From: an uncultured Clostridia bacterium
Lineage (GTDB): Bacteria; Bacillota; Clostridia; Christensenellales; Borkfalkiaceae
Direction of reading: 5' to 3'
NCBI GenBank assembly: GCA_964504025.1
Contig: CAZDCO010000001.1
Coordinates: 1,397-65,396, forward strand
DNA length: 64,000 bases
A model generated the notes under the pieces. The model saw only the letters and a program-made list of their open reading frames with translations, was not told where the DNA came from and searched no databases. The stretch's first letter is position 1. Each line of letters starts with the position of its first letter. Made by a program: the position numbers and the translations under genes. Shown here one piece after another: positions 4,839 through 37,327 of this stretch.

Positions 4839-4877
4839 CGGGAAAGGGCACGCAAAATATCGTTAAGGAGAAAAAAT

Positions 4878-7395: not shown

Positions 7396-7454
7396 AAAGT
7401 GCAGCACAATACGCGCCGCCTTTTTCATATTATAAAGCAAAGGAGCTTTATCGT

Positions 7455-23078: not shown

Positions 23079-23116
23079 AAAGAGAGGGTAGCCCGTCGGT
23101 TGCGCCCTCTTTTTTC
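23079..23116 (+). terminator. Rho-independent terminator after rny
   Basis: AGAGGG...CCCTCT stem followed by TTTTT. Confidence 0.7.
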
Positions 23117-23167: not shown

Positions 23168-23196
23168 TTGACTTTTCTTTTTTCATAATGTATAAT
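23168..23196 (+). promoter_or_regulatory. Consensus sigma-A promoter of the fibre locus
   Basis: TTGACT (23168-23173), a 17-nt spacer, then TATAAT (23191-23196). Confidence 0.75.
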
Positions 23197-23207
23197 ACCG
23201 ATAGATA

Positions 23208-23290
23208 CACGAGAATAGCAAAATAGTCGTAAGGCTATCACGCAAAGCTATAGGGGCTTGTGTTTATACGTAAGTCAGCCAGTTGCCGAA
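23208..23290 (+). promoter_or_regulatory. c-di-GMP-I (GEMM-I)-like riboswitch aptamer #1
   Basis: AGCAAAAUAGUC-GUAA-GGCUAUCACGCAAAGCUAUAGGGGC...AAGUCAGCCAGUUGCC. It has the GCAAA element, a GNRA-capped hairpin, the ACGCAAAGC junction and a 3' AGCCnGUUGCC as remembered for GEMM-I. It lies just downstream of the promoter. Confidence 0.8.
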
Positions 23291-23322
23291 TGAATCCCAC
23301 GAGGGTTACGTTCGGCTTTTTT
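23285..23322 (+). terminator. Expression-platform terminator of riboswitch #1
   Basis: GCCGAA...TTCGGC followed by TTTTTT. Its 5' arm overlaps the 3' end of the aptamer, and it ends about 20 nt before ATG 23342. Confidence 0.7.
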
Positions 23323-23341
23323 GTTGCCAAAAGGAAACGCT

Positions 23342-24151
23342 ATGCAAGAAATTACGAGAAAAAAACTGAAAATCGTATCGTCGTTGATTATGTGCGTATT
23401 AAGCCTTTTCTCCGTCGTTTCTCTCTCCCTTGCATGGTTCGCCGTCAATGGCTCCACGCGCGGCGACGGCATGGACGTCGTCGTTCGTAACGAAACGTGC
23501 GTTCTCGGTACGACCTACTATAAAATTACGAAAACGACCGACGGCAAGTACGCCTTGGGTACGGCGCAAACGGAGCTTTCCTTGGGCAAATATAACGCCT
23601 TGGATAACGATTATTCGGTGTTGCTTAAAATCTATCTTGACGCGTCGGCGTTGGAAAAAACGGTACACCTTGCCGCGGAAACGACCACGTCCTATTTCTT
23701 GGGCGACGGCGAACATCCGCTGTTGCCGCCCTCGGCGAGCGATAATACGCACCCCGATACGACGGGAAAGGGGTACACCAACGCTTTGTCGAGTATCGTA
23801 GCTTTTGCCGTGTTGACGCCGCAGGAAGTTGCCGCCGTAAAGGGGAGTACCCTCGCGCAAATTCCCACGCAAAACCGCTTGACTTCGTTGATCGATCAAA
23901 CCACGCAAAAACCGCAAAATAGCGTCAACGTGTCGCAAGACGGCGCAACGTCGCTGTCGTTGAGCGACGATAACTATAACGGACAGGCGTGTAAGGCGAT
24001 ATACGTCGTGATCACCTACGACGATTTGCTCGTTACCACCGTCTTTTCCGCCAATATCGGCAACGACGTAATGTCCACGACGGACGACGGCGGCGAGTCC
24101 GTTCCCATTCCCTTCGAACGCGATTTCACCTTGTTCGTAGACGTGCAGTAA
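23342..24151 (+). CDS. Secreted protein with a SipW/TasA-type 'AWF' signal peptide (TasA/camelysin-like candidate), 269 aa
   Basis: N-terminus KKLKIVSSLIMCVLSLFSVVSLSLAWFAVNGSTRGDGMDVVV. The same AWF...GM(D/N)V pattern occurs in the 28713 gene, and SipW peptidases are encoded in the same operon. Confidence 0.6.
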   Translation: MQEITRKKLKIVSSLIMCVLSLFSVVSLSLAWFAVNGSTRGDGMDVVVRNETCVLGTTYYKITKTTDGKYALGTAQTELSLGKYNALDNDYSVLLKIYLDASALEKTVHLAAETTTSYFLGDGEHPLLPPSASDNTHPDTTGKGYTNALSSIVAFAVLTPQEVAAVKGSTLAQIPTQNRLTSLIDQTTQKPQNSVNVSQDGATSLSLSDDNYNGQACKAIYVVITYDDLLVTTVFSANIGNDVMSTTDDGGESVPIPFERDFTLFVDVQ

Positions 24152-24218
24152 AAATAGCGAAACGCCTATACCAGTGTCGAGTTCACTATAAAAATACGAT
24201 AAAAGGAGGTACGAAAAA

Positions 24219-26735
24219 ATGAAAAAACTAACGACGGCTTTCGTAACGTTTTTAGCCGCTTTGCTCGCATTCACCGCGACCACGCTCGCGTGGTTTTCTA
24301 TGCGCGCACAAGTCCCTTTTCCTACCAACTTTTACGGCTCGACGCAAGCAGCCTACTTTGCAGGCGGCAACGGCAGCAAAGACGAGCCGTATACGATCAG
24401 CGCCCCCGTCCACCTCTACAATTTGGCTTGGTTGCAATACCTTGGCTATTTCAACCTCAAAGACGGCTTCAATAACGGTAGGGCGCAAAGCTTCTTCAAG
24501 CTGGAAAATTCCTTCTCGTGCAACGCCCTCGTCCTGCCTCCGATCGGCACGGCGGAATATCCCTTTATCGGCAACTTCGACGGCAACGGCAAAGTTCTCA
24601 CCAACGTTACCGTCTCCAACTATAAAAACGGCGATAACGGCTTTTCTCGTTATCCCGATAAGGCGCAGTTCAACGCCACGACGAACCTCTTGCTTTCCTC
24701 CAACTCCTCCAACGATAGCGAAGTGTCGATCGTCGGCTTGTTCGGCGTTACGGGCAATTATAACGACTTCGTAACGCAAAAATATGCCTCCGTAACGAAA
24801 AAAGATAGCGAAGAAACGCCTGCCCAAAATACGGCAATGGTAACGGAAACGGAGTTCGCTTACGGCAATATGCAGGTAAAAGACTTCTACGTGAATAACC
24901 TCCACGTGAACAGTCAGTCTGAAAAAACGCTGGTCGGGTTGGTTGCAGGCTACGTTCGCGGCAGCGTGAATAACGTCGGCGTGTACGCGTGCGATATGCA
25001 GCTGAAAAAAGGCGCACAGGGCTTGGAAGAGAATTCTTCCACCGTGTCCCATTACGCCATCGTAGGCAATTACGACGATAGCAAGGTAGAGTGGGAAGAA
25101 AAGCCGATCGGAGGCGTACAGGGCGATAGCGCGGCTTGGGGCGGCTCTATCGATATGCGTACGCTGAATAGAAGAATTACGTATATGTTTGCGGCGGCGG
25201 GAAAAGTAAATGCTACACGCTTGGAAATATCGGATGACAATTTTGGTCTTTCCGCTTCTCGTGTATCGGCTAGTGAGTATTATTGGAATAGAACAGACAC
25301 TTCGTCTTATGCGTTTATATATATCAATGACGGCACTGTGTTGCCACTTAACGTGGATAAATCCAAAATGGGTTTAGATAAAATGGTTTTAGATGAAAGC
25401 GATGAAGTGTTGATAAATAAAGAAGAAATAAAAGGTCTTCACTGCAATACATATTATCAAACATATACGCAAGAGGTAATCAGCTCGACGAATACGGGGT
25501 ATATCGTGGGTTATGGAAAGGATGCGAAATCAAGCATAAGAGCACGTATACAGCCCTTGGCTTCTTCTAACGACGGTGGTATTTATCGTTCGTTAGGATA
25601 TTCGGAGGCGCAAAAAGGATATTCGGAGGCGCAAAAAGACAAGTCTATTCAGTACAACGATGACCATAAAGAGAAATTCGAAATGTTGACCATTGCGTTT
25701 AATGCAGACGGAACGTCGTATAATACTTATCGCATCAAGGACGACGTAAACGGTTCCAAAGATACTACGGCGTTTGATAGCGTAACACAAAAGGGATACG
25801 CAGATTTAGGACTGAACGGATATCAAAGCGTGCGTACAAATTTCGACGCGTCCATGGAAAATTCGTACATGATACACGGCTTTCACTTTCAAAAAGCTTT
25901 ATCGGCTCAAACTGCAACTTCCTATGAAACGGTAAATAAAAACGTGACGTTGTGCGGCGAAGAAAAAACGAACTACTCGTTGATAAAAGGCGGCGTAAAC
26001 TTTACGCTGGAACAAGGCGGTACAATTAAGGCGATTTTAGGTTCGTATTATACGGGCGATGCGAATTCAATGTTCGATCTTTATCGAGTAGAAAGACAGG
26101 AGAACGCAACGGGCGGATATTCGATCAAAAGTTTTCAACGTCTCAGTAAAATATATAAAGACGCTGACGGTAAGCTTAGTTACATATATGAGAACGATAG
26201 CAGCACAACGGATACGGACGGTTTAACCTTGGTGTTTGATTTTGACGCCTTGACAAAGGAAGCCGTTTTAATGAAGAACGCCGCGTACTATTTTGAGATT
26301 CCCGTAACGGCAGGCGATTACGTTATGGGTGCGGATAAGGAATCTTCCGAGTCCAACGCCTACCTTATGTATTTGGATATCGGCGCGAACGGCGGTAACG
26401 ACGGTAGCGACGGCGGTTCGACGGGCGCAACGAAACCGTACGATATCGCTTCGGTCGATTTCGTCAGCGCGCAAGCGGATGCCCACTTCGCCGTACCGCA
26501 AAAGGACGGCGCGACGTACTTTCCGCAATACGCAGACGTAACGTTCTCCGTGTCGTCGGTTACGGAAAAAGCGGTGGTGAAATATCGCCGCGCCGAGTAC
26601 GCGGCGGACGATCTTGCCAACGCCCAAACGACGCCCATTGCGTCCGTGTTGAAATACTATTGCGAAAACGTAACGCTTACGCCTGCGTACGGAAGCGGCG
26701 GCAAGGCGGAAGAGGACGAAAGCTTGAAAAATTAG
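24219..26735 (+). CDS. Large secreted protein (838 aa) with an 'AWF' SipW-type signal and a GLUG/beta-helix-like adhesin module
   Basis: N-terminus LLAFTATTLAWFSMRAQV. The motif EPYTISAPVHLYNLAWL...PPIGTAEYPFIGNFDGNGKVLTNVTVSN matches the common surface-protein module (PIG..F.G.FDGNG..I.NL). An AAGGAGG RBS is present. Confidence 0.6.
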   Translation: MKKLTTAFVTFLAALLAFTATTLAWFSMRAQVPFPTNFYGSTQAAYFAGGNGSKDEPYTISAPVHLYNLAWLQYLGYFNLKDGFNNGRAQSFFKLENSFSCNALVLPPIGTAEYPFIGNFDGNGKVLTNVTVSNYKNGDNGFSRYPDKAQFNATTNLLLSSNSSNDSEVSIVGLFGVTGNYNDFVTQKYASVTKKDSEETPAQNTAMVTETEFAYGNMQVKDFYVNNLHVNSQSEKTLVGLVAGYVRGSVNNVGVYACDMQLKKGAQGLEENSSTVSHYAIVGNYDDSKVEWEEKPIGGVQGDSAAWGGSIDMRTLNRRITYMFAAAGKVNATRLEISDDNFGLSASRVSASEYYWNRTDTSSYAFIYINDGTVLPLNVDKSKMGLDKMVLDESDEVLINKEEIKGLHCNTYYQTYTQEVISSTNTGYIVGYGKDAKSSIRARIQPLASSNDGGIYRSLGYSEAQKGYSEAQKDKSIQYNDDHKEKFEMLTIAFNADGTSYNTYRIKDDVNGSKDTTAFDSVTQKGYADLGLNGYQSVRTNFDASMENSYMIHGFHFQKALSAQTATSYETVNKNVTLCGEEKTNYSLIKGGVNFTLEQGGTIKAILGSYYTGDANSMFDLYRVERQENATGGYSIKSFQRLSKIYKDADGKLSYIYENDSSTTDTDGLTLVFDFDALTKEAVLMKNAAYYFEIPVTAGDYVMGADKESSESNAYLMYLDIGANGGNDGSDGGSTGATKPYDIASVDFVSAQADAHFAVPQKDGATYFPQYADVTFSVSSVTEKAVVKYRRAEYAADDLANAQTTPIASVLKYYCENVTLTPAYGSGGKAEEDESLKN
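25596..25637 (+). repeat. In-frame 21-bp tandem repeat x2 (GYSEAQK GYSEAQK)
   Basis: GGATATTCGGAGGCGCAAAAA occurs twice in tandem inside the 838-aa gene. Confidence 0.9.
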
Positions 26736-26766
26736 CAATAAATTTGTGAAAAAGCCGTTAAAACGT

Positions 26767-26795
26767 TTGACGGTCGTAAACAAAAATGCTAAAAT
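26767..26795 (+). promoter_or_regulatory. Internal sigma-A promoter
   Basis: TTGACG (26767-26772), a 17-nt spacer ending in TGC, then TAAAAT (26790-26795). Confidence 0.7.
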
Positions 26796-26809
26796 AAATA
26801 TACAAACGA

Positions 26810-26886
26810 AATATTTTTTGGCAAAACCGTCGCGAGGCGGTGACGCAAAGCCATAGGACTTTTAACAGTTAGCTAGGTTGCAATTA
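26810..26886 (+). promoter_or_regulatory. c-di-GMP-I (GEMM-I)-like riboswitch aptamer #2
   Basis: GGCAAAACCGUC-GCGA-GGCGGUGACGCAAAGCCAUAGGAC...AGCUAGGUUGC. It has the same architecture as #1, with a GNRA-capped hairpin and the ACGCAAAGC core. Confidence 0.75.
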
Positions 26887-26920
26887 CGTATTCCAAGTAC
26901 GTTTTTGCGACCTTTTTTCT
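26879..26920 (+). terminator. Candidate expression-platform terminator of riboswitch #2
   Basis: GCAATTACGT...ACGTTTTTGC forms an imperfect stem (8 of 10 pairs) followed by GACCTTTTTT. Its 5' arm overlaps the aptamer 3' end. Confidence 0.45.
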
Positions 26921-26951
26921 TTACTTTTGCTTCCAAAGGAGTGTATTCCGC

Positions 26952-27761
26952 GTGACGACAGGCGATTTTCAAAAACTGAATACGTACGTGCAATACACCG
27001 TGCACAGCGGCGTGCAACCGATCGAATTGCTTTTTCAGCCCGTGCTCGATTGCTATTCGGCTGCTCCCGTGGCGTATCGCGTCGTCGTTCGGGTGAATAG
27101 TCTCACGACGGGCGTTTTGAATCCCGACGACTATTTATCCGCTTCGGTAGACGAGGAAACGCTACACGCTTTCACCGATCGCGCGATCCGAAAAACGGCG
27201 GCGGCGCAACTTGCGTTGCAAACTTCAAACGTACGCTTTTCGCACCTGTTCGTGCGCTGTCCGTCCTCATTCGTGTACGCGGCGGACTTGTATACGCGCT
27301 TAAAACTCGCGCTCGGTAGCGGCGGAGTGCGTGAAAGCAAACTGAGTTTAGAATTTGACGGTTCGGTTATGGACGCGGATAAGCCCACGTTACAACGCGC
27401 GTTCGCCGATATTCGCGCGGCAGGCTGCACGGTTGCCGTGAACGGCTACGGCGGTTTGCACTTCTCCATGGAAAAATTGCTCGCGGTTTGTCCCGATCAA
27501 CTCTTCTTGGACGAGAGTATCGCCGCTTTGACGACGGATAAAGAAAAACGGGCGGCGGTTGCTCCGCTGATCAACTTCGCCAAGAGTTTGGGCGGCGAGC
27601 TGATTGCTTGCGGCGTTGCCGACGACGAACACTTGCGAGAGTTCCGCTCGCGCGACTGTATCGGTTTTTTACCCGACGGAAGTTATCACGGCGCGTTGAC
27701 GGTGGACGACGGTTTGCATACGCTCGTTGCACTTTGCAAGGAGGGAACGGAAAATGTTTAA
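26952..27761 (+). CDS. Stand-alone EAL-like domain protein with degenerate catalytic motifs (GTG start)
   Basis: It shows EAL-fold spacing (FQPV..., LSLEFDGS, VAVNGYGG, LFLDESI, ACGVADDEHL, IGFL), but the EAL, N, DDFGTG, K, EGVE and QGY positions are all substituted. Confidence 0.6.
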   Translation: MTTGDFQKLNTYVQYTVHSGVQPIELLFQPVLDCYSAAPVAYRVVVRVNSLTTGVLNPDDYLSASVDEETLHAFTDRAIRKTAAAQLALQTSNVRFSHLFVRCPSSFVYAADLYTRLKLALGSGGVRESKLSLEFDGSVMDADKPTLQRAFADIRAAGCTVAVNGYGGLHFSMEKLLAVCPDQLFLDESIAALTTDKEKRAAVAPLINFAKSLGGELIACGVADDEHLREFRSRDCIGFLPDGSYHGALTVDDGLHTLVALCKEGTENV

Positions 27762-28524
27762 CGAAAAACGACCGCTCACTTCGATCAAAAAGAACGCGCA
27801 AGCCACGAAACGCACTCGTCGTTACGTAAAAATACTTTCGCCCGTCATCGGGCTGGTGCTGGCGGTGCTGATCATTGCCTACGTAGCGTCCTTGCTCTTT
27901 TCGCAATACGGCAGCTTTACAATTACGGTAAAAGACTACGCCGATCGTAGCTACGCGCTTACTCTTTCCGAAAGCTCGTCCTTCCAAACGAGTACGTCGA
28001 AATTGACGGCGGAAGAAGTGAAAAATATCAACAACATAACCTACACGTCTTTACCGAACGACTTGAACGACGTAGACGGACCGCATAGCGGAAATGATTA
28101 TCTCGCTTATACCTTCTACGTGAAAAACGTCGGGGAAAAGACTTGCGATTATACCTATCGTTTGGCGATTACGCGCGCAACGGTGGGGATAGACGCGGCT
28201 GTTCGCGTCCGAATCTACTTCACGCCCGATTTTTACAAAGCGGATACGCAAACGTATAACCGCGGCGGCGAGTATATCGACTACGCAAAGCCCAAAACGG
28301 GCGGCAACGGCGAGGCGGAAGTCGATCCGGGCAACCGAGTGATGACCAACTTCTTCAATGCGGAAGTCGTGGCGCAACGAACGGTGAAAGACTTTGCCGT
28401 CGGCGACGTGGCGAAATTTACCGTGGTGATTTGGTTAGAGGGCGAAGACCCCGATTGCACGGACGACGTGCTTGGCGGCGTATTCAAAACGGACATGGAT
28501 ATCGCGATTGAAAGCGAATCATAA
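27754..28524 (+). CDS. Membrane-anchored extracellular protein (256 aa), possible fibre accessory or anchor
   Basis: A GGAGGGAA RBS precedes the ATG, which overlaps the upstream stop by 8 nt. The protein has a basic N-terminus, one TM helix (ILSPVIGLVLAVLIIAYVASLLF) and a beta-rich ectodomain ending FTVVIWLEGEDPDCTDDVLGG. Confidence 0.5.
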   Translation: MFNEKRPLTSIKKNAQATKRTRRYVKILSPVIGLVLAVLIIAYVASLLFSQYGSFTITVKDYADRSYALTLSESSSFQTSTSKLTAEEVKNINNITYTSLPNDLNDVDGPHSGNDYLAYTFYVKNVGEKTCDYTYRLAITRATVGIDAAVRVRIYFTPDFYKADTQTYNRGGEYIDYAKPKTGGNGEAEVDPGNRVMTNFFNAEVVAQRTVKDFAVGDVAKFTVVIWLEGEDPDCTDDVLGGVFKTDMDIAIESES

Positions 28525-28568
28525 ACGCAACCCGTTCCAAACGCGGCTTTTTCGGTTTTCTCTTGACG

Positions 28569-28636
28569 AAGCAATCCATTCCCTGCAACGAGGGAAAACG
28601 GAAAGCCGCGCAAGGATATACCCGAAGCCGATTGAG
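28569..28636 (+). promoter_or_regulatory. Possible degenerate GEMM-I-like leader element (#3)
   Basis: AAGCAAUCC-[UUCCCU GCAAC GAGGGAA]-AACGGAAAGCC...AGCCGAUUG. It has the same order of elements as #1 and #2, but ACGGAAAGC replaces ACGCAAAGC and the 3' hairpin is short. Confidence 0.3.
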
Positions 28637-28712
28637 TATATATACCTTTGATATTTACCGCGAAAGGTGCATTCGCGGCAAAGATAAAAAAAATTTTTTA
28701 GGAGTACAAAAA

Positions 28713-29444
28713 ATGAAAAAGTTTAAGAAAATTATTCCTGCACTTTGCATGCTTCTCGTAAGCGCAGTCTTGCTTGGTACGTCCACCTTCGCGTGGTTCT
28801 CTATCAACAACCAAGTTACCGCCGGCGGAATGAACGTATCTGCTACCAGCAACACGCAATTCTTGGTGATTAGCAGCAGCAACACCCTTGGAACGGATAC
28901 GAATTTGGCAACCGTAACGAAAACCAGCGGCGGCGTTGACGGGAACAAGGTATATCCCTGCGCACAAGCAACGGAAGCGAATAAACCTGCAACGGGCTTG
29001 GCTGTCGGCGATTGGTATACGGCACAAAGTAAAGATTTTGACGACGCGGCGGATTTGACGGGTGGCACGAACGAAAACGCAGTAAACGTTAAGAAAATTG
29101 AAACGAGTGATTTGACCAACTATCACTTAACATATACCTTCTACGTTGGTTTGGCGAGCGGTTCTTCCGCCGTTACGAGTGATTTGCAATTCGTAGGTGC
29201 GTGCGACGGTTTTGAAAAAGGCATTACCGCGTTTATCTCAATCGATGGTACGTCGAAAACCATGAGCAGCACTACGGCTGTTACGTTTGAAGGCGTTGCG
29301 TTGTCTACTACGGCAACGACTGTAACGGTTGTATTGTATATCAACGGTAACAACGCGAACGTAAAGAGTTCCTCTGCGTTGGCTGGGATTGCAGGGACGC
29401 TCGGTTTGACGATTACCGCAACCGACATCGACGTTAGCGCATAA
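28713..29444 (+). CDS. Small secreted 'AWF'-signal protein (243 aa), candidate major fibre subunit (TasA/camelysin-like)
   Basis: An AGGAG RBS is present. The N-terminus is MKKFKKIIPALCMLLVSAVLLGTSTFAWFSINNQVTAGGMNVSATS. The mature part is Thr/Ser/Ala/Gly-rich, and a stable hairpin lies directly downstream. Confidence 0.6.
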   Translation: MKKFKKIIPALCMLLVSAVLLGTSTFAWFSINNQVTAGGMNVSATSNTQFLVISSSNTLGTDTNLATVTKTSGGVDGNKVYPCAQATEANKPATGLAVGDWYTAQSKDFDDAADLTGGTNENAVNVKKIETSDLTNYHLTYTFYVGLASGSSAVTSDLQFVGACDGFEKGITAFISIDGTSKTMSSTTAVTFEGVALSTTATTVTVVLYINGNNANVKSSSALAGIAGTLGLTITATDIDVSA

Positions 29445-29462
29445 TGAACGATTAAGCTATAT

Positions 29463-29490
29463 CCGTGCGAGGGCGTACGCTTTCGCACGG
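29463..29490 (+). other. Stable hairpin after the candidate major-subunit gene (attenuator or mRNA stabiliser)
   Basis: CCGTGCGA...TCGCACGG forms an 8-bp stem around a palindromic GCGTACGC. No T-run follows. Confidence 0.5.
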
Positions 29491-29560
29491 AAACGTAGCT
29501 TTGAACGCTTGCACCGCGTCTGAGGCTATTTGAAAAGATCCGAAAAGGAATGTTTAGGGA

Positions 29561-30337
29561 ATGGAAACGACAACGAAAAATAAAATTAAGAAGATAACGG
29601 GGATCGTCGTCAACGTCTTGTTGTGGCTTTTCGTGGCTTTTTCCGTTGTGATCACGATCATAGCGGTTTCTGCAAGCGCGAACAAGAAAAACGTACCGAC
29701 GCTTGGCGGACGTTGCTATTTAAGCGTACAGTCCGATTCGATGAACGCATCGAAACCCGAGTGGGTATCCGCCGATAAACCGAGCGGATTCAAAACGGGC
29801 GATTTGCTGATCGGCAAATATATTTCCGACGATCAAGCGGCAATCGCCGCGTTGGAAATCGGCGACGTCATCACGTTCGAATACGATATGAACCACGACG
29901 GCGTATATTCGCAAGGCGAGTATAACACTCACCGTATCGTGGAGATCATAACGAAGGAAGACGGCAGCGTAAACTTTTACAAAACGCAGGGCGATAACGA
30001 AGCGTTCAGCCACGGAGCTACGGAAGAGGTATATGCGTCGCGTATCATTGCCGTATATACGGGCGACAAAATCGGGGGGATCGGCGGCGTCATTACGGCG
30101 TTGAGTACGCCTCTCGGATTCGGGTTGTGTATCGTGTTGCCGTTGGGCTTGTTCTTCGGCTACGAATTGTTCGTGTTCATTAGAACGGTTATGCAGGTAA
30201 AGAACGAGGGTAAGAAAATGATCACTGCCGCCGACGAAGAGTTGATCAAACAACGCGCGGTGGAAGAATATTTACGTATGCAACGGGAAGCGCAAGAGAG
30301 CGCGAAAGCGGAGCAAACGAACGAAGAAGAAATATAA
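29561..30337 (+). CDS. sipW: SipW-type (ER/archaeal-type) signal peptidase I, paralog 1
   Basis: N-terminal TM helix, Ser box QSDSMNAS, His box THRIVEI, QGDNE box, and a C-terminal TM helix plus charged tail. Confidence 0.8.
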   Translation: METTTKNKIKKITGIVVNVLLWLFVAFSVVITIIAVSASANKKNVPTLGGRCYLSVQSDSMNASKPEWVSADKPSGFKTGDLLIGKYISDDQAAIAALEIGDVITFEYDMNHDGVYSQGEYNTHRIVEIITKEDGSVNFYKTQGDNEAFSHGATEEVYASRIIAVYTGDKIGGIGGVITALSTPLGFGLCIVLPLGLFFGYELFVFIRTVMQVKNEGKKMITAADEELIKQRAVEEYLRMQREAQESAKAEQTNEEEI

Positions 30338-30371
30338 GCTCGTGGGAGCTTAGTAAAACGAGGAACGAAAT

Positions 30372-31931
30372 ATGTACGGTTTTCTGACGTGGTTCAAAGC
30401 GTTTTTTGAAAATATGTTAAACGGAATATTAGAAATCTTTTCAGGGCTATTCTTCGGGATCGTCCACATTTTCGATTTTCCTTACTATTTCAAGTTGTGG
30501 GCGACCGAAGGTTCGACCTTTAACGCGTTCGACTGGATCTTATCCGTTTTATCCTTCTTGCTCGTGTTCGCCGTTTGGTTCGCCGTATTTTTCCTGATCG
30601 TGCTCGCCGTGCGTAAATTCGTGCGGTATCGTAAAACGGTAACGCGCAACGAAGACTTGTTGGAAGAAATCGCCGATTTGCATAACGAAGTCGGACGGCT
30701 TGCCAACGAAAAGGAAAAGATTATACAGTTAAAGGTAACGCAAGCAGGGCTTTCGTACGAGCAATTCAAAAAAATGTTCGAGGCGCAGTTGCAAGAAGCG
30801 GCGCAAACCGTCGCCGCACCGCAGAGCGAACCGCAAACGCTCGCGCCGATCGACGGACGATTCCAACGCTTGTCCGCCGTCGACGAAAAGTACGCCTACT
30901 ACGAACCGCCCGTATACGACAAAATTGAGTCGTTGCAAGCGTTGTGCGAAGAACTCCGCAACTACGCGTGCAGTCAAAACGGGTTATATTACGAGTTGCG
31001 CACCATTCGTTTGATGATCGCAGGGCTTGCGGCGACGAAATTGATCGTCCTGCAAGGTATATCGGGTACAGGTAAAACGTCGTTGCCGTACGTTATGGGT
31101 AAATTTTTCCAAAACGACGCCACGATCGCTTCCGTGCAACCATCTTGGCGCGACCGTAACGAATTGTTCGGCTACTTTAACGAATTTACGAAGAAATTTA
31201 ACGAAACCGAAGTGCTGAAACGCATTTACGAATCGGGCTACAACGACGATTTGAACGTCATCGTTTTGGACGAAATGAACATCGCGCGCGTCGAATACTA
31301 CTTCGCGGAAATGCTGTCCATTTTGGAAATGCCGAACTCGGAAGAATGGAAGATCGAGCTCGTGCCATCCACGATGGAAAACGATCCGACGCGTTTGGAG
31401 GGCGGCAATTTGAAAATTCCGCAAAACGTATGGTACGTCGGTACGATCAACAACGACGACTCTACCTTCTCCGTGTCCGATAAGGTGTACGATAGAGCGT
31501 TCGTTATCAATTTGGACAACAAGGGTATTCCCTTCTCCGCGCCGAAAACGGAAGCGAAGCGCATTGCCTATTCCGAAGTGGAAGGGCTGTACTGCAAAGC
31601 GATGGAAGAATATCCCGTCAGTCAAACGATTTTGGACGATATTGAAAAGTTGGACGGCTATGTCATCGAGAAATTTAGGATCGCGTTCGGTAACCGTATC
31701 ATGAAACAGCTCAAAAGCTTCGTGCCTGTGTACGTGGCTTGCGGCGGTACGGAAAAAGAGGGTGTCGATTATATGTTGGCGACGAAAGTCTTCCGCAAAT
31801 TCGAGAGTTTGAATCTCTCCTTGATCCGCGACGAAATTCGTCCGTTGATCACCTATTTAGATTCCCTGTTCGGCAAAGGGGAAATGAAAGAGTGTATTGC
31901 CTATTTGCAGTTGTTGCAAAAAATGTATTAA
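30372..31931 (+). CDS. Membrane-anchored McrB-family AAA+ NTPase (519 aa)
   Basis: Two N-terminal hydrophobic helices, a coiled-coil stretch, Walker A LQGISGTGKTSL, Walker B VIVLDEMNIARVEYYFAEMLSILE, and GTINNDDS...YDRAFVI, as in McrB/AAA_5 proteins. Confidence 0.75.
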   Translation: MYGFLTWFKAFFENMLNGILEIFSGLFFGIVHIFDFPYYFKLWATEGSTFNAFDWILSVLSFLLVFAVWFAVFFLIVLAVRKFVRYRKTVTRNEDLLEEIADLHNEVGRLANEKEKIIQLKVTQAGLSYEQFKKMFEAQLQEAAQTVAAPQSEPQTLAPIDGRFQRLSAVDEKYAYYEPPVYDKIESLQALCEELRNYACSQNGLYYELRTIRLMIAGLAATKLIVLQGISGTGKTSLPYVMGKFFQNDATIASVQPSWRDRNELFGYFNEFTKKFNETEVLKRIYESGYNDDLNVIVLDEMNIARVEYYFAEMLSILEMPNSEEWKIELVPSTMENDPTRLEGGNLKIPQNVWYVGTINNDDSTFSVSDKVYDRAFVINLDNKGIPFSAPKTEAKRIAYSEVEGLYCKAMEEYPVSQTILDDIEKLDGYVIEKFRIAFGNRIMKQLKSFVPVYVACGGTEKEGVDYMLATKVFRKFESLNLSLIRDEIRPLITYLDSLFGKGEMKECIAYLQLLQKMY

Positions 31932-31952
31932 CGGAGCGTTAGAGAAAGCGGT

Positions 31953-34385
31953 ATGGAAAACGAAAGAGTAAACGACGTATTTTCCGCGACGGAGCAATCG
32001 GAATCCGCCGCTTTTCTCGGTTGGACGCAAAAATTGAAATTCGATCGTTCGTTCACGGCGAAACTCAGCCTTGCGGACGATAAAGTGAAGGGCTTTTATA
32101 CCGAAATCGCGTCCGCCTTGCTCGCCTACGATCGCGTGAGATCGCGCACGGGCTGGTCGGGCGTATCCTTTTCCGTAGGGCGCGAACGGGTGGCGTTTAT
32201 CGCCGTAACGGGTAAAACGCTGTGCGTATACCTCGCGCCGTTCACAGAAGAATTGCCCTCATCGCGGTATAAGGCAAAGGACGTGTCTTCCGTCAAAGCG
32301 CGCGCCAAAACGCCCCTTTTATGGAAGATTAAAAGCGACGGCGCGAAGAATTACGTACTCAAACGCATAGAAGACTACGCAAAGAGCGCAGGTTGGACAA
32401 AGCGCGAAGTCGGGCAGGAAGAAATGCCGTTTGCCGCGCCGAAAAGCGATTCCTTCCAAAACTTGATCACGCGCGGACTGATCCGAATCGTAAGAAACGG
32501 CGTAATCGATCGCGCGAAAAGGAGTGCGCTTCCGCGTGCGGAAACGAACGGCGCGTACGCCGATACGGTGGATACGCTGCAATCGCTTTTGGAACGGCAC
32601 GGCGCGTACGACGAAATTTTGTCGTTGTTCTCGGACGGCGAGGGCAAGGCGAGCCTTTCTCAAAAACAAATTCTCCGTTGCGTAGACGAAATTTGGGTGA
32701 ACGCCGTGGAAGATTGTCTTTCGGCGTTGGACGAACTCATTCGTAACCCCAACCATTTCATTGCGGAATCGGAGGACGTGTTGCCGATTGAAAAGACGAA
32801 GAGGATCAGCGGTAGATCGATCGCGCATTTGTGCCGCCATACCGACTACGTAAGCGTAGACAGAAACGGGGATATTACGCCGACGAAAATGCTGAACGTC
32901 TTTCGGGAAGATTCGTTGTTGACGTACGAAAACAAGTTCTTGAACACGCTCGTTTACCGCCTGTACGCGTTCGTGGATAAGCGGTATAAAATCGCGCGCG
33001 AATACGGCGCGGACGAAACGTTGAGCGAATTTGTGTTCGAGAACTCTTTTACGCACGGCGACGGTAAGGGCAAAGTGAAGATCAGCGTCGAATATTCCGA
33101 ACGGAATTTGAACGCGGACGTGAAGAACGGCTTGCTCGGTACGGGGCTTTGGAAGAGAGTGGAACGCTTGCACGATATCGTCGGCAGCTATATGCAATCT
33201 TCTTTCGTTAAAGCTATGGAAAAGAACTTCGTGCATCCGCCGATTTTGCGTACGAACGCCATTTTGAAGAATAAATATTTCAGAGAATGTCTCGCCTTGT
33301 GGGAATTTATCGAACGTTACGACGACGCCGGGTACGGAATCACCGTCGAGGAAAAATCGCAAGAGATTTCCGACGAATACGTCCGAACGGCGTACGCGGG
33401 CGCGGCTATGCAGTACCTGTTGTTCCGTAAGGCGTTGGACGACGACTTCGAGGACGAGGACGAACCGTCGTATATCCGTCCGGAATTTACCGTATTGGAA
33501 AGGCAGCGCGAAGAATTTGAGGAGAAATTCTTCGACGAACCGTTCGAGGGGGAGATCGAGGACGACGTTACGTTTGCGTTGCGCGTCGCGCTTGCGGCGG
33601 ACGAGCAAACGCCGTCCGATACGACGGGAGTTACGTTCATGCAACGTACCTTCCACGCAAGGTTGCGCACGGCGAACGAGGGTACGAAAGCGTCCTTCGT
33701 CGAGCTTGCCAACGCGTTGTTGCGCTACGAGCGCGTAAAAATGCGGCAGAGTAAAAAATACGCGTCGTTTTCCGTCGGTCGGCGCACGATCGCAAAGATT
33801 ACCGTCAGCGAAAAGACGGTTAAACTGTATTTGGCGTTGAACGAAACGCCGAACATATATCACGCGTATAGCGTGGCGGATAAAAAAACGTTCGAGGATA
33901 CCCCCGTATGCTTGCGCGTGCGCGGCTCGCGCAGTTTGGGGTACGCAAAACGGCTGATTGCCGAACTTGCCGAGGAACTTTCCTTGCAAACGGCGGAGAA
34001 CGCACCGCAAACGACGGTAGCTGACTATCCGACGGAAAGTTTAGCGGAAATGTTGCAAAAGGGCTGGGTAAGCTTTTCCCGTCGCTCGTCTTTTCCGTCC
34101 GCAAAAGCGTTTGGAAAGGAAAAGAACGCGCGGATGGATACGTACGCGGAGGAAACGCGCCGCAACGCCGTACAACCGACGAAACCGCAACCGTTGCCTA
34201 CAACGAAGAAAAACGAAGAATACGAACCATCCGAAAACGCACGCGCCGTGGCACGCGACATCGGCGATTTGATTCGTCCTACGGGCAATTACGAACGCCC
34301 GACCGAATACGGCGTGGACGACGCGTCGGGCTTTATGTCGGACGAACGGGAGCGCGCGAACGCTGACGACGGAGAGAACGTATGA
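31953..34385 (+). CDS. 810-aa partner protein: two copies of a terminal domain flanking a McrC/DUF2357-like core; no nuclease motif recognised
   Basis: The TYENKFLNTLVYRL motif resembles the T-x-EN-x-F motif of McrC/DUF2357. There is an internal repeat (residues about 32-150 versus about 565-680). The stop overlaps the next start (ATGA). Confidence 0.5.
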   Translation: MENERVNDVFSATEQSESAAFLGWTQKLKFDRSFTAKLSLADDKVKGFYTEIASALLAYDRVRSRTGWSGVSFSVGRERVAFIAVTGKTLCVYLAPFTEELPSSRYKAKDVSSVKARAKTPLLWKIKSDGAKNYVLKRIEDYAKSAGWTKREVGQEEMPFAAPKSDSFQNLITRGLIRIVRNGVIDRAKRSALPRAETNGAYADTVDTLQSLLERHGAYDEILSLFSDGEGKASLSQKQILRCVDEIWVNAVEDCLSALDELIRNPNHFIAESEDVLPIEKTKRISGRSIAHLCRHTDYVSVDRNGDITPTKMLNVFREDSLLTYENKFLNTLVYRLYAFVDKRYKIAREYGADETLSEFVFENSFTHGDGKGKVKISVEYSERNLNADVKNGLLGTGLWKRVERLHDIVGSYMQSSFVKAMEKNFVHPPILRTNAILKNKYFRECLALWEFIERYDDAGYGITVEEKSQEISDEYVRTAYAGAAMQYLLFRKALDDDFEDEDEPSYIRPEFTVLERQREEFEEKFFDEPFEGEIEDDVTFALRVALAADEQTPSDTTGVTFMQRTFHARLRTANEGTKASFVELANALLRYERVKMRQSKKYASFSVGRRTIAKITVSEKTVKLYLALNETPNIYHAYSVADKKTFEDTPVCLRVRGSRSLGYAKRLIAELAEELSLQTAENAPQTTVADYPTESLAEMLQKGWVSFSRRSSFPSAKAFGKEKNARMDTYAEETRRNAVQPTKPQPLPTTKKNEEYEPSENARAVARDIGDLIRPTGNYERPTEYGVDDASGFMSDERERANADDGENV

Positions 34386-35014
34386 GCGTCGGTGCGAAGA
34401 TAAAAAAAATCGTCGGTACGGCACTCTTCGTGCTCGTCGTGCTGTTCGTGCTTTTCGCCGCCGTAGTAGGTACGATCAATCGCGCGAGAAATAAGCCTAC
34501 GTTTTTGTTCGGACACGCGCTGTTGTGGGTAGAAACGGGGAGTATGGAACCGTCCATTCCGTCGCGAAGTTACGTGTTGGTGCGCGAATATTCGGGTGAA
34601 AATTTGGAAACGGGCACGGTGATTACCTTCACCTGTACCGATCCCTCTTCCGCCGTGTACGGCGAAACGATCACGCACCGTATCGTCGAAGTAACGACGG
34701 AGGGATACAGGACGAAAGGGGATAACGGAAACCCCGATACGTGGACGGTAAAATCACAAGACGTGGTAGCCGTGTACGTAACGAACCTTTCCGTATTGAC
34801 CGCGATCGGGCGAATTTTCGCTTCTCCGATCGGCTTGTTGTTGATCGTGGGCGTGTTCTTGGCTTCGTGCGTATTTTTATATATTCCCGATATCGTCAAG
34901 GCGTTTCAAAGTACCGCGGACGACCGCACGGATAAAGAAAAAGAGTTGGAAATAGAAAGAAGAGTACGCGAAGAAGTGCGTAAACTGCAAGAAGATAGGA
35001 GGCAGGGAAAATAG
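34382..35014 (+). CDS. sipW: SipW-type signal peptidase I, paralog 2
   Basis: TGSMEPSIP Ser box, THRIVEV His box, KGDNGNPD box, and a C-terminal TM helix plus charged tail. Its ATG overlaps the TGA of the upstream gene. Confidence 0.85.
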   Translation: MSVGAKIKKIVGTALFVLVVLFVLFAAVVGTINRARNKPTFLFGHALLWVETGSMEPSIPSRSYVLVREYSGENLETGTVITFTCTDPSSAVYGETITHRIVEVTTEGYRTKGDNGNPDTWTVKSQDVVAVYVTNLSVLTAIGRIFASPIGLLLIVGVFLASCVFLYIPDIVKAFQSTADDRTDKEKELEIERRVREEVRKLQEDRRQGK

Positions 35015-37263
35015 TGCGAAATTTTTTAGCAAAATATAAAAACGTATTGTTGCTCTCCGTATTAGCCGTCGTTTGTACGAGCTTTTTCCTGTATGTCTTG
35101 TTGCTGTTGGGCGATTATAACGCGGGCGTAAACGAACAAGCGCGTTCCCGTGCGGAGTTTTACGCGGCCGAACAAACGCACTACGTTCAAGGGCAGGGCG
35201 ACGATCTCTCGCGCGCAACGGAGTACGCCGCCGATAAACTTGCTTCTTGCACGTCGCCAGCGGAGTTGATCGAGGAGTTGCAACGCTCGGAAGTTGCGCT
35301 CCGCGGAGACGATTTTCTCGGCGCGTTCTACGCCAAAGACGACGTCTTGTACGACGAGGACGGCGCGGTCGCGTGGAATTATACCGCGATCAAAGACGAT
35401 TTGCAAACGGAAAGCACGACGCTTTCGCGCATATTCTATTATAAAAATCAAGATCCGTCTTTCGCCGTCGTAGCTAAGACGGACTCGCCTCTTGTCGACG
35501 CTTTCGTAACGGTGTATAAGCGCAGCGCGCTCTCCCTCTCCGCCGCTTTGGACGAGGAACGCGGTTCAGAATTCGTTTTGCTTTGCCGCCACGACGGTAA
35601 AATCGTAGAAAAACTCGTGCACGGCGATACGTTCACGATCGATAATGAGCCGATTCAAAACGGATTGTTGAAAACGCTGTTCAACGACAATTCCGATTGG
35701 CAACGGGTGTGCGCCGCGTTCTCGGAAGCGGAAACGCAGTCGTTTATCTTCCAAAAAGGCTCGTCGCAATACGTCTTGACGGTTACTCCGTTCGGCACGT
35801 CCTACGGGGAAACGTCCTTGGTATGCGCGTATAAGGTGAGTGCGATCTACGGCGAGGGCTTTACCGTCATGCAAAGTATCTACGCCGCGTTGCTCAGCTT
35901 GACGATCGTGATCGTCGTTGCCGCAGGTGCGCTGTTGGTTACGAAATTAGCGGAAAAGCGTAAAATATTCCGTTTGGAAATGGAAGTACCCTTCTTGCAG
36001 TGCGCTACCGTCAAAAAATTCGAGAACGAAGCGGACGAGTTGTTGAAACGCCACCCTCGTTCTTCGTTCGCGCTCGTTTCTTTGCAAATCGGCAACTACG
36101 GCTACGTCGTCGATTGCTTCGGGGAAGAGTCAGCAAAGCAGCTTTCTAAATACGTCGCCGATACGTTGCGCCGCACGCTCTATTTGGAAGAAACGTTCGG
36201 CTACGCGCAGGACGGGGAGTTCGTACTCCTTTTGCATTACCGTGAGCGGCAAGGCTTGGCGGAGCGTTTGAACGGCACGTATATGCGTTTGTCCTCGTTC
36301 AACTGCTTTGGCGACGGTGCGTATAAAGTAGGCGCGTCGTTCGCCGTGTACGAAGTGGAACGCGAGGAAAAGCAAACGGTCAAGCAAATGCTCGATAAGC
36401 TGTATATCGCGAAAGAATCCGCCACGTCGCAAAACGCGTCGGTATCGATCGGATATTACGACGACGTTATGCGTAAACGGTATATGAAAAAGGCGGAAAT
36501 CGAAGGCAAAATGGAACAAGCGTTGAAAAACAGCGAATTCCACCTCTTTTACCAGCCGAAGTATAACCTCAAAGCGAAAAATTTGGACGGTTGCGAAATT
36601 CTCGTCCGTTGGTACGACGCCGCTTTGGAAAAATATCATCTCCCCGCCGAGTTTTTACCCGTCTTCGAGGAGAACGGCTTTATCGTCAAGCTCGACCACT
36701 TCGTCTTCTATAAAGCCTGCGAAAATATCGCCAAACGCATCGAAAACAGACAAATTTGTTATCCCATTTCCGTCAACGTTTCCCGTATCACGGCAATTCA
36801 ATCGGATTTCACCGATTATTACGTGCGTATCAAAAAGAAATTCGATATCAAAGACAATTTCATCACGCTGGAATTTACCGAAAGCTTCGCGTATGAAAAT
36901 TACGAATTTTTGCGGAATATCGTCGATACGATGCACGCGAACGGCTTGCTTTGTTCGATCGACGACTTCGGCACGGGCTATTCGTCGTATAATATCCTGA
37001 AAACGATCGCCATGGACGAAATCAAACTCGACAAGTTCTTCCTCGGCAAGGGCTTGACTGCCGAACGCGATCAAACGCTGCTGGAAAGCGTGATCGGCAT
37101 GGTAAAAAAACTGGGCATGAAGGTTACGCAAGAGGGCGTGGAAACGGAAGAGGACTTGTTCCGTCTGGACGCACTCGGTTGCGACGTCATTCAAGGCTAC
37201 TATTTTGCAAAGCCTATGAAATATTCCGACTACTGCACGTTCGTCGATAAAAACTTTACTTGA
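35014..37263 (+). CDS. Membrane sensor protein with a degenerate GGDEF and an intact EAL domain (c-di-GMP phosphodiesterase), GTG start
   Basis: Two TM helices flank an approximately 250-aa extracytoplasmic region. The GGDEF position reads QDGEF. The EAL motifs are EILVRW, SVNVS, LEFTES, DDFGTGYSS, IKLDK, QEGVETEED and IQGYYF. Confidence 0.85.
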   Translation: MRNFLAKYKNVLLLSVLAVVCTSFFLYVLLLLGDYNAGVNEQARSRAEFYAAEQTHYVQGQGDDLSRATEYAADKLASCTSPAELIEELQRSEVALRGDDFLGAFYAKDDVLYDEDGAVAWNYTAIKDDLQTESTTLSRIFYYKNQDPSFAVVAKTDSPLVDAFVTVYKRSALSLSAALDEERGSEFVLLCRHDGKIVEKLVHGDTFTIDNEPIQNGLLKTLFNDNSDWQRVCAAFSEAETQSFIFQKGSSQYVLTVTPFGTSYGETSLVCAYKVSAIYGEGFTVMQSIYAALLSLTIVIVVAAGALLVTKLAEKRKIFRLEMEVPFLQCATVKKFENEADELLKRHPRSSFALVSLQIGNYGYVVDCFGEESAKQLSKYVADTLRRTLYLEETFGYAQDGEFVLLLHYRERQGLAERLNGTYMRLSSFNCFGDGAYKVGASFAVYEVEREEKQTVKQMLDKLYIAKESATSQNASVSIGYYDDVMRKRYMKKAEIEGKMEQALKNSEFHLFYQPKYNLKAKNLDGCEILVRWYDAALEKYHLPAEFLPVFEENGFIVKLDHFVFYKACENIAKRIENRQICYPISVNVSRITAIQSDFTDYYVRIKKKFDIKDNFITLEFTESFAYENYEFLRNIVDTMHANGLLCSIDDFGTGYSSYNILKTIAMDEIKLDKFFLGKGLTAERDQTLLESVIGMVKKLGMKVTQEGVETEEDLFRLDALGCDVIQGYYFAKPMKYSDYCTFVDKNFT

Positions 37264-37288
37264 TTGCTTTCGGGGGTATGTCCGAGCG

Positions 37289-37327
37289 AAAAAATCGTCC
37301 TGTCGAATACAGGACGATTTTTTTTTA
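37289..37327. terminator. Bidirectional rho-independent terminator closing the locus
   Basis: AAAAATCGTCCTGT-CGAAT-ACAGGACGATTTTTTTTT. Confidence 0.9.

Follow-up and report, generated by a model that had tools for sequence, protein, structure and literature searches.

Why are a relative of the GTPase McrB and an McrC-like partner encoded between two signal peptidase genes, in a locus that otherwise specifies secreted proteins and proteins of cyclic di-GMP (c-di-GMP) turnover? McrBC is the textbook GTP-driven restriction enzyme. The question was raised by a stretch of 64,000 nt of an uncultured Clostridia bacterium (contig CAZDCO010000001.1), here called the window, in which ten co-directional open reading frames (ORFs), numbered g1 to g10, occupy positions 23342-37263 of the + strand. 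With moderate confidence, we read this locus as a chromosomal, c-di-GMP-induced system for a cell-surface fibre or adhesin, belonging to the type that was named CoCoPALM in a survey of McrBC systems by Bell et al. (eLife 2024, PMC11090510).

The McrBC-like pair and its place between two signal peptidases

Four adjoining genes form the core of the locus:

29561-30337, + strand: g6, SipW-type signal peptidase 1 (SipW1)
30372-31931, + strand: g7, two transmembrane (TM) segments, coiled coil and McrB-family AAA+ (ATPases associated with diverse cellular activities) domain
31953-34385, + strand: g8, McrC-like partner of 810 aa, with a DUF2357 core (residues ~200-500) and two YjbR/YdhG/DUF5655-like modules (residues 28-150 and 559-700)
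34382-35014, + strand: g9, SipW-type signal peptidase 2 (SipW2)

The AAA+ domain of g7 matched McrB from Escherichia coli (PDB 6hz4/6ut6, E 4e-6 over residues 202-378) and the McrB model NF008457 (2.6e-6). It is preceded by two hydrophobic segments (residues 16-34 and 62-80) and then a heptad-rich stretch (residues ~90-135), so that the two-TM McrB-family protein proposed between the sipW genes in a first-pass annotation of the window was indeed present. Matches of g7 to FtsB-type domains were weak and of the FtsL/GspM type (TIGR02209, E 0.098; GspM, 3.3e-4; Pfam FtsL, E 0.24). The Walker A, Walker B and G-T-x-N-x-D-(D/E)-S-T motifs were conserved to at least 98% in 45 species. The median identity across loci was 44% for g7, as compared to 28-35% for the other genes, so that no gene of the locus is better conserved than g7; its intact GTPase motifs show the highest conservation of all. 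A library of representatives at 50% identity contained 757 relatives of g7 at E<=1e-30. Many of these have a length of 600-870 aa, a long N-terminal coiled coil and the motif N-x-D-(D/E)-S-T, and coiled-coil relatives show NDDD, NKDE or NRDE in the same NxD register. Judged by these features, the 600-870-aa proteins would correspond to CoCoNuT-type relatives.

The partner g8 matched DUF2357 (PF09823) with E-values of 1.6e-5 and 2.7e-6. The domain is recorded in many of the listed g8 homologues and scored 1.3e-9 and 3.1e-10 in those of the related loci L050 and L028. The N-terminal DUF2357 domain of McrC plugs into the McrB hexamer and activates its GTPase (PMC11090510). Residues 270-320 of g8, within the central helical core, are invariant in the homologues and of low confidence or disordered in the AlphaFold2 (AF2) monomer model. 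We interpret this segment as a putative McrC "stalk", and the disorder in the model would be as expected of a stalk that becomes ordered only inside the ring. A PDDEXK nuclease was detected by Pfam at E<=10 neither in g8 nor in its segment 340-500, and the precomputed Pfam domains of 120 listed homologues included no nuclease. The hairpin 355-384 has no conserved (D/E)xK motif. The residues E-N-K at 326-328 were considered as such a motif and rejected: they lie in a helix after the putative stalk, within the DUF2357 match, and not in a nuclease beta-strand. An inactivated nuclease fold in g8 is possible. These results agree with the earlier view of the 810-aa protein as a nuclease-less McrC-like partner.

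The AF2 model of g8 consists of confident domains with a low predicted template modelling score (pTM 0.37) and contains two copies of an alpha/beta module of ~120 aa. Its longest helices comprise 26 and 21 residues, and a long coiled coil is absent from the model. Foldseek with this full-length, multi-domain model, whose low pTM limits the comparison, returned noise and weak, below-threshold domain matches to 2fki, 9t2w and 2oc6 (YjbR, YdhG/DUF1801-like); McrC was not matched. A profile search of PDB sequences with g8 yielded nothing. Some g8 homologues score as DUF5655. The two modules, encoded at positions 32034-32402 and 33624-34052 of the window, belong to a type whose copy number varies from two to roughly seven or more across relatives. 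In the horse-gut relatives L017 (11578-16788, 1736 aa) and L019 (5436-9689, 1417 aa) the module stands in tandem roughly seven or more times. In the C-terminal tail of g8 (34290-34385) a disordered linker leads to a conserved acidic motif, NYxxPTEYG(I/V)DDxSGFxxDE, a possible docking peptide.

Compared with E. coli McrBC (PDB 6hz4, 6ut6), the pair shares the homologous AAA+ GTPase domain with its Walker A, Walker B and N..D motifs, and the DUF2357 domain of g8. It differs in several respects. Homology of g7 is limited to residues 202-378, the N-terminal DNA-binding domain is missing and replaced by the TM segments and coiled coil, and the motif is NxD and not NxxD. No PD-(D/E)xK nuclease is detectable in g8, and a secretion and surface locus surrounds the module and shares its regulation.

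When one genome per species was scanned, 50 loci were recovered whose g7 relatives had identities of 40-75%. Their hosts range from walled gut and rumen "Clostridia", represented by metagenome-assembled genomes, to Anaeroplasma and Acholeplasmatales; the nearest relatives are uncultured gut and rumen "Clostridia" or "Bacilli". By ORF calls g8 adjoined g7 in 39 of 44 loci, and the other five, which reach the contig end, were positive by tblastn. SipW1 was located upstream of g7 in 34 of the 41 loci with enough sequence, and SipW2 followed g8 in 30 of 35. This SipW1-g7-g8-SipW2 core is usually preceded by g4 and the secreted leader proteins described below, in front of which a degenerate EAL protein may stand, and is usually followed by a GGDEF/EAL protein. 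Since the order recurs in essentially all of the 50 species-level loci, the AAA+ pair belongs to the locus, as the first-pass annotation had assumed, and is not a feature of defence islands unlinked to sipW. We concluded that the core is not a chance defence insertion. A fortuitous insertion of the pair between two sipW genes, for which nothing speaks beyond the family resemblance to McrBC, is refuted by the retention of the gene order from 99% down to 40% g7 identity and can be dismissed for practical purposes.

Overlapping stop and start codons point in the same direction. Direct reading of the sequence gave an ATGA overlap at the g8/g9 junction (34382-34385) and a TAGTG overlap at the g9/g10 junction (35012-35016), both as first annotated, and the g3 and g4 reading frames overlap by 8 nt. 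The g8/g9 and g9/g10 junctions are predicted to be translationally coupled.

Two related loci from true Acholeplasma, L050 (43-13318, from the cultured Acholeplasma equifetale ATCC 29724) and L039 (3-10015), encode a giant cadherin-like repeat protein (at least 2858 and at least 1730 aa, respectively) and a GGDEF/EAL-like protein of 451-458 aa, after which g7 and g8 follow.

Could the pair still serve in defence, even though it is not a chance insertion? It would then be an McrBC/CoCoNuT-like system that guards a phage receptor or entry site or causes abortive infection via the peptidases, with the g8 modules sensing nucleic acid. The other members of the NxD clade, to which g7 belongs, are predicted defence systems. 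In PADLOC, g7 matched the candidate PDC-M26A at 2.4e-36, and the g8 module type matched the single-gene defence candidate PDC-S18 at 6.7e-9. AAA+-level relatives were found on plasmids and in one phage, with identities of at most 41%; full-length TM-type relatives were not found in the plasmid and phage collections. Carriage of g7 by plasmids or phages was rejected, as the relatives there match the AAA+ domain only. A defence role is further disfavoured by the lack of a nuclease or other effector domain in g8 and its 120 listed homologues, and by the TM segments and coiled coil of g7 where McrB has its DNA-binding domain. The pair holds a fixed position between two peptidases in ~50 species and includes the most conserved gene of the locus, unlike patchy, fast-evolving defence genes. 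Its expression appears tied to c-di-GMP and not constitutive, and the locus lies beside the dcw/recA/rny housekeeping genes and not in a defence island. We regard a defence function as improbable.

Among described systems the closest is CoCoPALM, the name given to systems of an McrB with TM and coiled coil, an McrC and a signal peptidase (PMC11090510). The earlier belief that a coupling of this kind with an McrB-like NTPase was undescribed is therefore not entirely accurate. CoCoPALM is treated in about three sentences of that survey, with the analysis deferred to a future publication. According to the survey, CoCoPALM McrB belongs to the NxD clade, its DNA-binding domain is replaced by an FtsB-like N-terminus with TM and coiled coil, and coiled coils are usually present in both the McrB and McrC homologues. 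The survey makes no mention of c-di-GMP, riboswitches, EAL/GGDEF proteins, leader-bearing cargo or YjbR/DUF5655-like modules. A later CoCoPALM paper was not found in the literature. Nor did literature searches bring up relevant work that links c-di-GMP to SipW, McrB or Acholeplasma, or that deals with the cargo family or with a nuclease-less YjbR/DUF5655-like partner. The locus shares with CoCoPALM the NxD signature of the McrB-like GTPase, the adjoining DUF2357 McrC homologue and the association with signal peptidases (g6 and g9). The TM and coiled-coil N-terminus of g7 fits in architecture, but its matches were weak and to FtsL/GspM-type models. It differs in that the coiled-coil-like segment of g7 is short and the g8 model has no long coiled coil; the wording of the survey is "usually", with which this is compatible. 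By its gene content, the locus appears to be a typical member of the named, essentially uncharacterised CoCoPALM kind.

Predicted control of the locus by c-di-GMP

The following elements bear on the regulation of the locus:

23168-23196, + strand: promoter 1, TTGACT-17-TATAAT (11/12 consensus, the best + strand match in the region), 10 nt 5' of aptamer 1
23207-23290, + strand: c-di-GMP-I aptamer 1 (RF01051 61.4 bits, E 1.5e-9; family covariance model 70.1 bits)
23285-23323, + strand: intrinsic terminator 1 (-17.5 kcal/mol, z -3.9, U-run), 5' arm overlapping the 3' end of aptamer 1 by 6 nt
26767-26795, + strand: promoter 2, TTGACG-17-TAAAAT with extended TG (10/12 consensus)
26810-26885, + strand: c-di-GMP-I aptamer 2 (RF01051 57.1 bits, E 1.6e-8; family covariance model 75.5 bits)
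26875-26920, + strand: intrinsic terminator 2 (-19.7/-20.1 kcal/mol, z -6.85, U-run), 5' arm overlapping the 3' strand of aptamer 2 by 11 nt
26952-27761, + strand: g3, stand-alone degenerate EAL protein (Pfam EAL 1e-27), catalytic residues replaced
35014-37263, + strand: g10, membrane protein with degenerate GGDEF (QDGEF, 4e-5) and intact EAL (3.6e-52)

Two consensus promoters, each followed by a GEMM-I-like aptamer and a terminator, had been described on first inspection. In an Rfam scan of the whole window both aptamers scored well above the gathering score of RF01051 (35 bits) and were the only matches above threshold, and the two terminator hairpins, each with a U-run, were located at 23285-23317 and 26875-26914. 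Both aptamers start ~10-15 nt 3' of the best + strand sigma-70-like promoters of the region. The total number of promoter-like sites in the region was no greater than in shuffles, and support for the promoters therefore rests on their position and not on their number. Aptamer 1 heads the transcription unit g1-g2 and aptamer 2 the unit g3-g10. A third aptamer, suspected earlier at 28525-28712, was rejected: this segment gave no Rfam aptamer match, RF01051 included, even at E<=10, no match to the family covariance model, and a fold of 28525-28600 that was no better than shuffles (z -0.5).

Because the 5' arm of each terminator overlaps the 3' strand of its aptamer, aptamer and terminator are mutually exclusive. 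In the minimum-free-energy fold of the second leader the terminator was formed and the second aptamer helix was lost. We infer from this overlap an ON-switch architecture. From the Rfam hits we built a family covariance model and ran it over the related loci, where 45 aptamers were found, all on the strand of the locus. Of the 27 loci whose upstream sequence spans 7 kb or more, 21 had same-strand aptamers. The design with an overlapping terminator was seen in 31 of 42 family aptamers, with overlaps of 6-16 nt and including both aptamers of the window. The predicted control by c-di-GMP is thus a trait of the family, and the riboswitch gating proposed in the first-pass annotation gained support from the Rfam matches and from the aptamers of the related loci alike. 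An aptamer homologous to aptamer 2 lies directly 5' of the g3 homologue in L001, L004, L008-L011, L017 and L019.

In several relatives the locus is preceded by c-di-GMP-I aptamers in tandem, two or three to an array (L031 6754-7178, L042 1953-2190, L048 1129-1370), and a terminator follows the last aptamer only. In L020, seven c-di-GMP-I matches are scattered.

The two aptamers of the window differ at Rfam model position 11, presumably G20 in the Vc2 numbering. The bases of aptamer 2 are canonical; aptamer 1 has A instead of G (window position 23217), directly 5' of the conserved GCAAA. The change G20A makes GEMM-Ib riboswitches accept 3'3'-cGAMP (3'3'-cyclic GMP-AMP). An A at model position 11 occurs in 13 of 42 family aptamers, aptamer 1 among them. 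Such A-type aptamers were found at L017 6346/19906, L019 147/12807, L031 6754, L026 922, L042 1953/2036, L046 2083 and L048 1129/1210, and within tandem arrays the A-type aptamers come first and the G-type last. About 11 Anaeroplasma-type aptamers show U at the presumed C92 position.

In the canonical platform of aptamer and terminator 5' of surface-protein genes, the locus resembles the c-di-GMP-I (GEMM-I) riboswitches of adhesin and pilus genes in Clostridia and Bacilli. It differs from these in that the regulated unit is a CoCoPALM locus, that relatives carry tandem arrays of two to three aptamers, and that A replaces the presumed G20 in about one aptamer in three, as in cGAMP-responsive GEMM-Ib. 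The matrix-fibre operon tapA-sipW-tasA of Bacillus subtilis is under SinR-type regulation, in contrast to the predicted control by c-di-GMP riboswitches here.

Proteins of the EAL family bracket the core. In g3 the motif DDFG is changed to NGYG, EGVE to CGVA and the K to F, which affects metal- and substrate-binding residues, and the catalytic residues are also replaced in the g3 homologues across loci. We therefore regard g3 as a candidate c-di-GMP receptor or adaptor. The intact catalytic motifs of an EAL phosphodiesterase are absent from g3 and its homologues and present in g10, whose translation contains EIL, DDFGTGYSS, EGVE and QGY. TM segments of g10 at residues ~4-32 and 291-309 lie on either side of an extracytoplasmic domain of ~260 aa. 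These readings agree with the first description of a stand-alone EAL protein with substituted catalytic motifs and of a membrane protein with degenerate GGDEF and intact EAL; g10 is a predicted c-di-GMP phosphodiesterase.

Leader proteins and SipW-type signal peptidases

What the locus would export is indicated by four further genes:

23342-24151, + strand: g1, secreted protein of 269 aa with AWF leader (residues 9-65 against the g5-family profile: hhalign 79%, E 1.7e-5)
24219-26735, + strand: g2, secreted, adhesin-like protein of 838 aa with AWF leader, a variable cargo (residues 2-33 against the g5 profile: 89%, E 2e-6)
27754-28524, + strand: g4, TM-anchored protein of 256 aa with basic N-terminal tail, one TM segment (strongly hydrophobic residues 31-49) and beta-rich ectodomain, motifs YxYTFYxxNxG and WLEGxDPDC
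28713-29444, + strand: g5, AWF-leader protein of 243 aa and candidate major subunit, with near-invariant N-terminus and AF2 beta-sandwich

The leader common to g1, g2 and g5 consists of a basic N-terminus, a hydrophobic core, the motif T-x-A-W-F and ~20 further residues. It was also present on 27 + strand ORFs in 25 loci, Anaeroplasma-type loci included. Across 50 homologues the N-terminal 45 residues of g5, including the hydrophobic core, are almost invariant, and the remainder varies freely. Such invariance is unusual for a Sec signal peptide and suggests recognition by a dedicated machinery and a structural role of the first mature residues. The AF2 model of g5 (predicted local distance difference test, pLDDT, 84.5) shows a beta-sandwich of residues 50-240 with a disordered N-terminal extension outside it; pLDDT was low at residues 20-37 and intermediate at 38-50.

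The anchored protein g4, whose family is kept as far as Anaeroplasma in the alignment, was weakly matched by the profile of the g5 family (hhalign 40%, E 3e-4). In L028 (Anaeroplasmataceae, 3984-8157) four consecutive genes each encode a TTTYAWF (or TATFAWV) leader. The two leader proteins of L028 that were translated end with FW(L/F)EGWDADCF, which is the g4 signature WLEGxDPDC. Since leader proteins of L028 carry this C-terminal signature of g4, g4 and the leader proteins probably form one superfamily, with g4 as the uncleaved, anchored form. The weak profile match and the common C-terminal motif fit the earlier note of a TM-anchored relative accompanying the AWF proteins.

The first-pass annotation had called these proteins TasA/camelysin-style. 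The AWF leaders of g1, g2 and g5 were found as described; a relationship to TasA or camelysin was not. Neither Peptidase_M73 (PF12389) nor the SipW-cognate signal model (TIGR04088) matched g1, g2, g4 or g5 at E<=0.1, or their N-termini at E<=10, and g1 and g2 had no Pfam or NCBIfam domain match. A comparison of the g5 model with the PDB by Foldseek, run to look for the TasA jelly-roll, gave no match at E<=1e-3, and TM scores did not exceed 0.25. The best 50 of 788 weak matches were mainly cupins, together with carbohydrate-binding modules and other beta-sandwich domains, and TasA was not among these 50. An hhalign comparison of a TasA sequence with the g5 profile gave a non-significant 4% probability that concerned the signal peptide only. 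The cleavage region can be written in register with that of TasA (GTWA|AFND in TasA versus STFA|WFSI). Membership in the TasA/camelysin family was rejected on the Pfam, NCBIfam, PDB-profile, Foldseek and hhalign results, all negative or insignificant. "TasA-like" is kept as an analogy, which refers to a SipW-type peptidase and a conserved mature N-terminus, and not as a family assignment.

Both peptidases had SipW as their top match (NF046067, 1.5e-14 for g6 and 6.3e-20 for g9), and their translations retain the Ser, His and Asp motifs (SDSM, THR and GDN in g6; GSMEP, THR and GDN in g9), consistent with the two SipW-type signal peptidases annotated before. In TIGR02228 (curated cut-off 51.85 bits) g9 passed with 62.4 bits, and g6 fell short of the curated cut-offs with 32.1 bits (9e-8). 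Both remained far below the equivalog cut-off of 190 for B. subtilis SipW, and neither is therefore an orthologue of SipW. We class g6 and g9 as predicted signal peptidases of the ER (endoplasmic reticulum)/archaeal type (S26B).

With tapA-sipW-tasA of B. subtilis and sipW-bsaA of Clostridium perfringens (PMC7395162) the locus has in common a dedicated SipW-like peptidase beside secreted substrates and a conserved mature N-terminal segment. By analogy, the membrane-associated g4 might be an accessory protein like TapA. It differs from both in that the cargo is not detectably TasA/camelysin and that two peptidases plus an NTPase pair are present.

Are the leader proteins fibre subunits, or are they surface proteins that are displayed singly or released, such as adhesins, an S-layer-like coat or enzymes, by way of a dedicated SipW-type pathway? 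The second view draws on g2, whose relatives of up to 1968 aa are adhesin-like and differ in number and position among loci, on the g5 model, for which no pilin or TasA structure was a significant match, and on the Acholeplasma loci, where a cadherin-like giant protein takes the place of the leader proteins. Features typical of polymerising subunits argue for a fibre: the first ~20 mature residues of the g5 family hardly vary and are not part of the folded core, the small subunit occurs as tandem paralogues (three in L004, two in L011), and the membrane-anchored homologue g4 is co-conserved. On this evidence display or release of single proteins seems unlikely.

A model for the locus and its genomic setting

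In the proposed mechanism, high c-di-GMP would stabilise the aptamers and block the terminators, and transcription of the locus would be switched on. Sec would export the leader proteins, and their unusually invariant leader would keep them in the membrane until g6 and g9 cut them at TxA|WF. The freed N-terminal strand, WFSxNxxVTAxGMxV, would link the subunits, and uncleaved g4 would form the membrane base. On the cytoplasmic face, a g7 ring anchored by its TM segments and coiled coil would be driven by the "stalk" of g8, as McrC drives McrB, and the pair would power or license processing and assembly. The candidate receptor g3 may provide post-translational licensing, and hydrolysis of c-di-GMP by g10 would exert negative feedback.

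The pair might act as a checkpoint or regulator and not as a motor. As a membrane GTPase switch it would gate SipW, delivery by Sec or the signalling of fibre status to the cytoplasm, for instance under the control of c-di-GMP via g3, and would perform no mechanical work on the subunits. Synteny and coupling serve this alternative just as they serve the motor, McrC acts as a GTPase activator in McrBC (PMC11090510), the degenerate EAL protein g3 and the phosphodiesterase g10 bracket the module, and the Acholeplasma variants, in which SipW was not detected, keep g7-g8 beside a giant surface protein and a GGDEF/EAL protein. A working motor, however, accounts at least as well for the extreme conservation of the ATPase motifs and of the whole AAA+ domain, and a receptor-type domain was not identified in g7 or g8. 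We consider the checkpoint rather unlikely as an alternative to the c-di-GMP-induced fibre or adhesin system set out above; the data do not separate motor and checkpoint roles of g7-g8.

Several points weigh against this fibre or adhesin system. No fibre has been seen in any member. To our knowledge, no secretion or pilus system uses an McrB-type GTPase. The cargo fold has no significant structural relative, and polymerisation by strand donation is proposed by analogy. The ON logic of the riboswitches is deduced from the overlap of aptamer and terminator only, and with A at the presumed G20 the ligand of aptamer 1 may not be c-di-GMP alone. The YjbR/DUF5655-like modules of g8 have relatives with a DNA-binding annotation and relatives in defence candidates, a hint at a nucleic acid-related activity that the model does not explain. 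In the two true Acholeplasma loci neither a SipW-type peptidase nor a riboswitch was found in the flanks examined; the function of the g7-g8 pair would thus not strictly depend on SipW, and the link of the pair is to surface and c-di-GMP proteins more generally.

More tentatively, the locus may represent a new class of surface-filament machine. Its leader-bearing subunits would be cut by ER-type peptidases and polymerised from a membrane base, and a McrBC-derived GTPase ring with a nuclease-less activator would power or gate the process from the cytoplasmic side, under the control of ON riboswitches for c-di-GMP (possibly cGAMP) and of a degenerate-EAL receptor. This class would be common to walled gut Bacillota and to wall-less Anaeroplasma/Acholeplasmatales. 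If this holds, it would be the first non-defence, mechanical role of an McrB-family GTPase and a principle of pilus assembly apart from the type IV, chaperone-usher, sortase, type V and TasA pathways. This branch of McrBC, with its permanent position between two signal peptidases in a surface locus switched by c-di-GMP, would clearly exemplify the recruitment of a defence motor to envelope biogenesis. The present analysis extends the brief published mention of CoCoPALM in several ways. It supplies c-di-GMP, acting through proposed ON riboswitches that often stand in tandem, as a regulatory signal, and a candidate cargo family marked by the diagnostic TxAWF leader, with a membrane-anchored homologue as possible base. 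It also describes a nuclease-less partner in which the number of YjbR/DUF5655-like modules varies, and shows that the hosts include abundant, uncultured Bacillota of gut and rumen and Mollicutes-like lineages. This regulatory and cargo context makes the function testable. The locus may bear on adhesion or biofilm formation by these gut organisms.

The locus is bounded by two terminators:

~23081-23113: rny terminator, upstream boundary
37289-37327, both strands: bidirectional intrinsic terminator, a perfect hairpin with runs of A and U on its flanks (z -6.3 on the + strand, -7.1 on the - strand), end of the locus

Between these hairpins the ten same-strand genes stand as first annotated, and the same ten genes were called independently on a 99%-identical contig of a Logan assembly (SRR22923243). 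On the 5' side the locus is preceded by ftsK, a gene for a radical-SAM/TRAM-domain enzyme, recA and rny, and before those by the dcw cluster with murE, mraY, murD, ftsZ and murC. Its surroundings in the window are housekeeping genes and not a defence island. A wall-less host was ruled out: as murE, mraY, murD, ftsZ and murC are all in the window, the organism has a cell wall. The GC content of the whole window is 49.8%.

Long ORFs run antisense to g8 (563 aa; 32319-34010, - strand), g1 and g2. These are probably shadow ORFs: they have translations of odd composition and are missing from the gene calls of the sister contig (L051). Further downstream, an 892-aa ORF on the + strand (50947-53625) without a Pfam match at E<=1e-5 adjoins an alpha-L-fucosidase gene (53754-54953).

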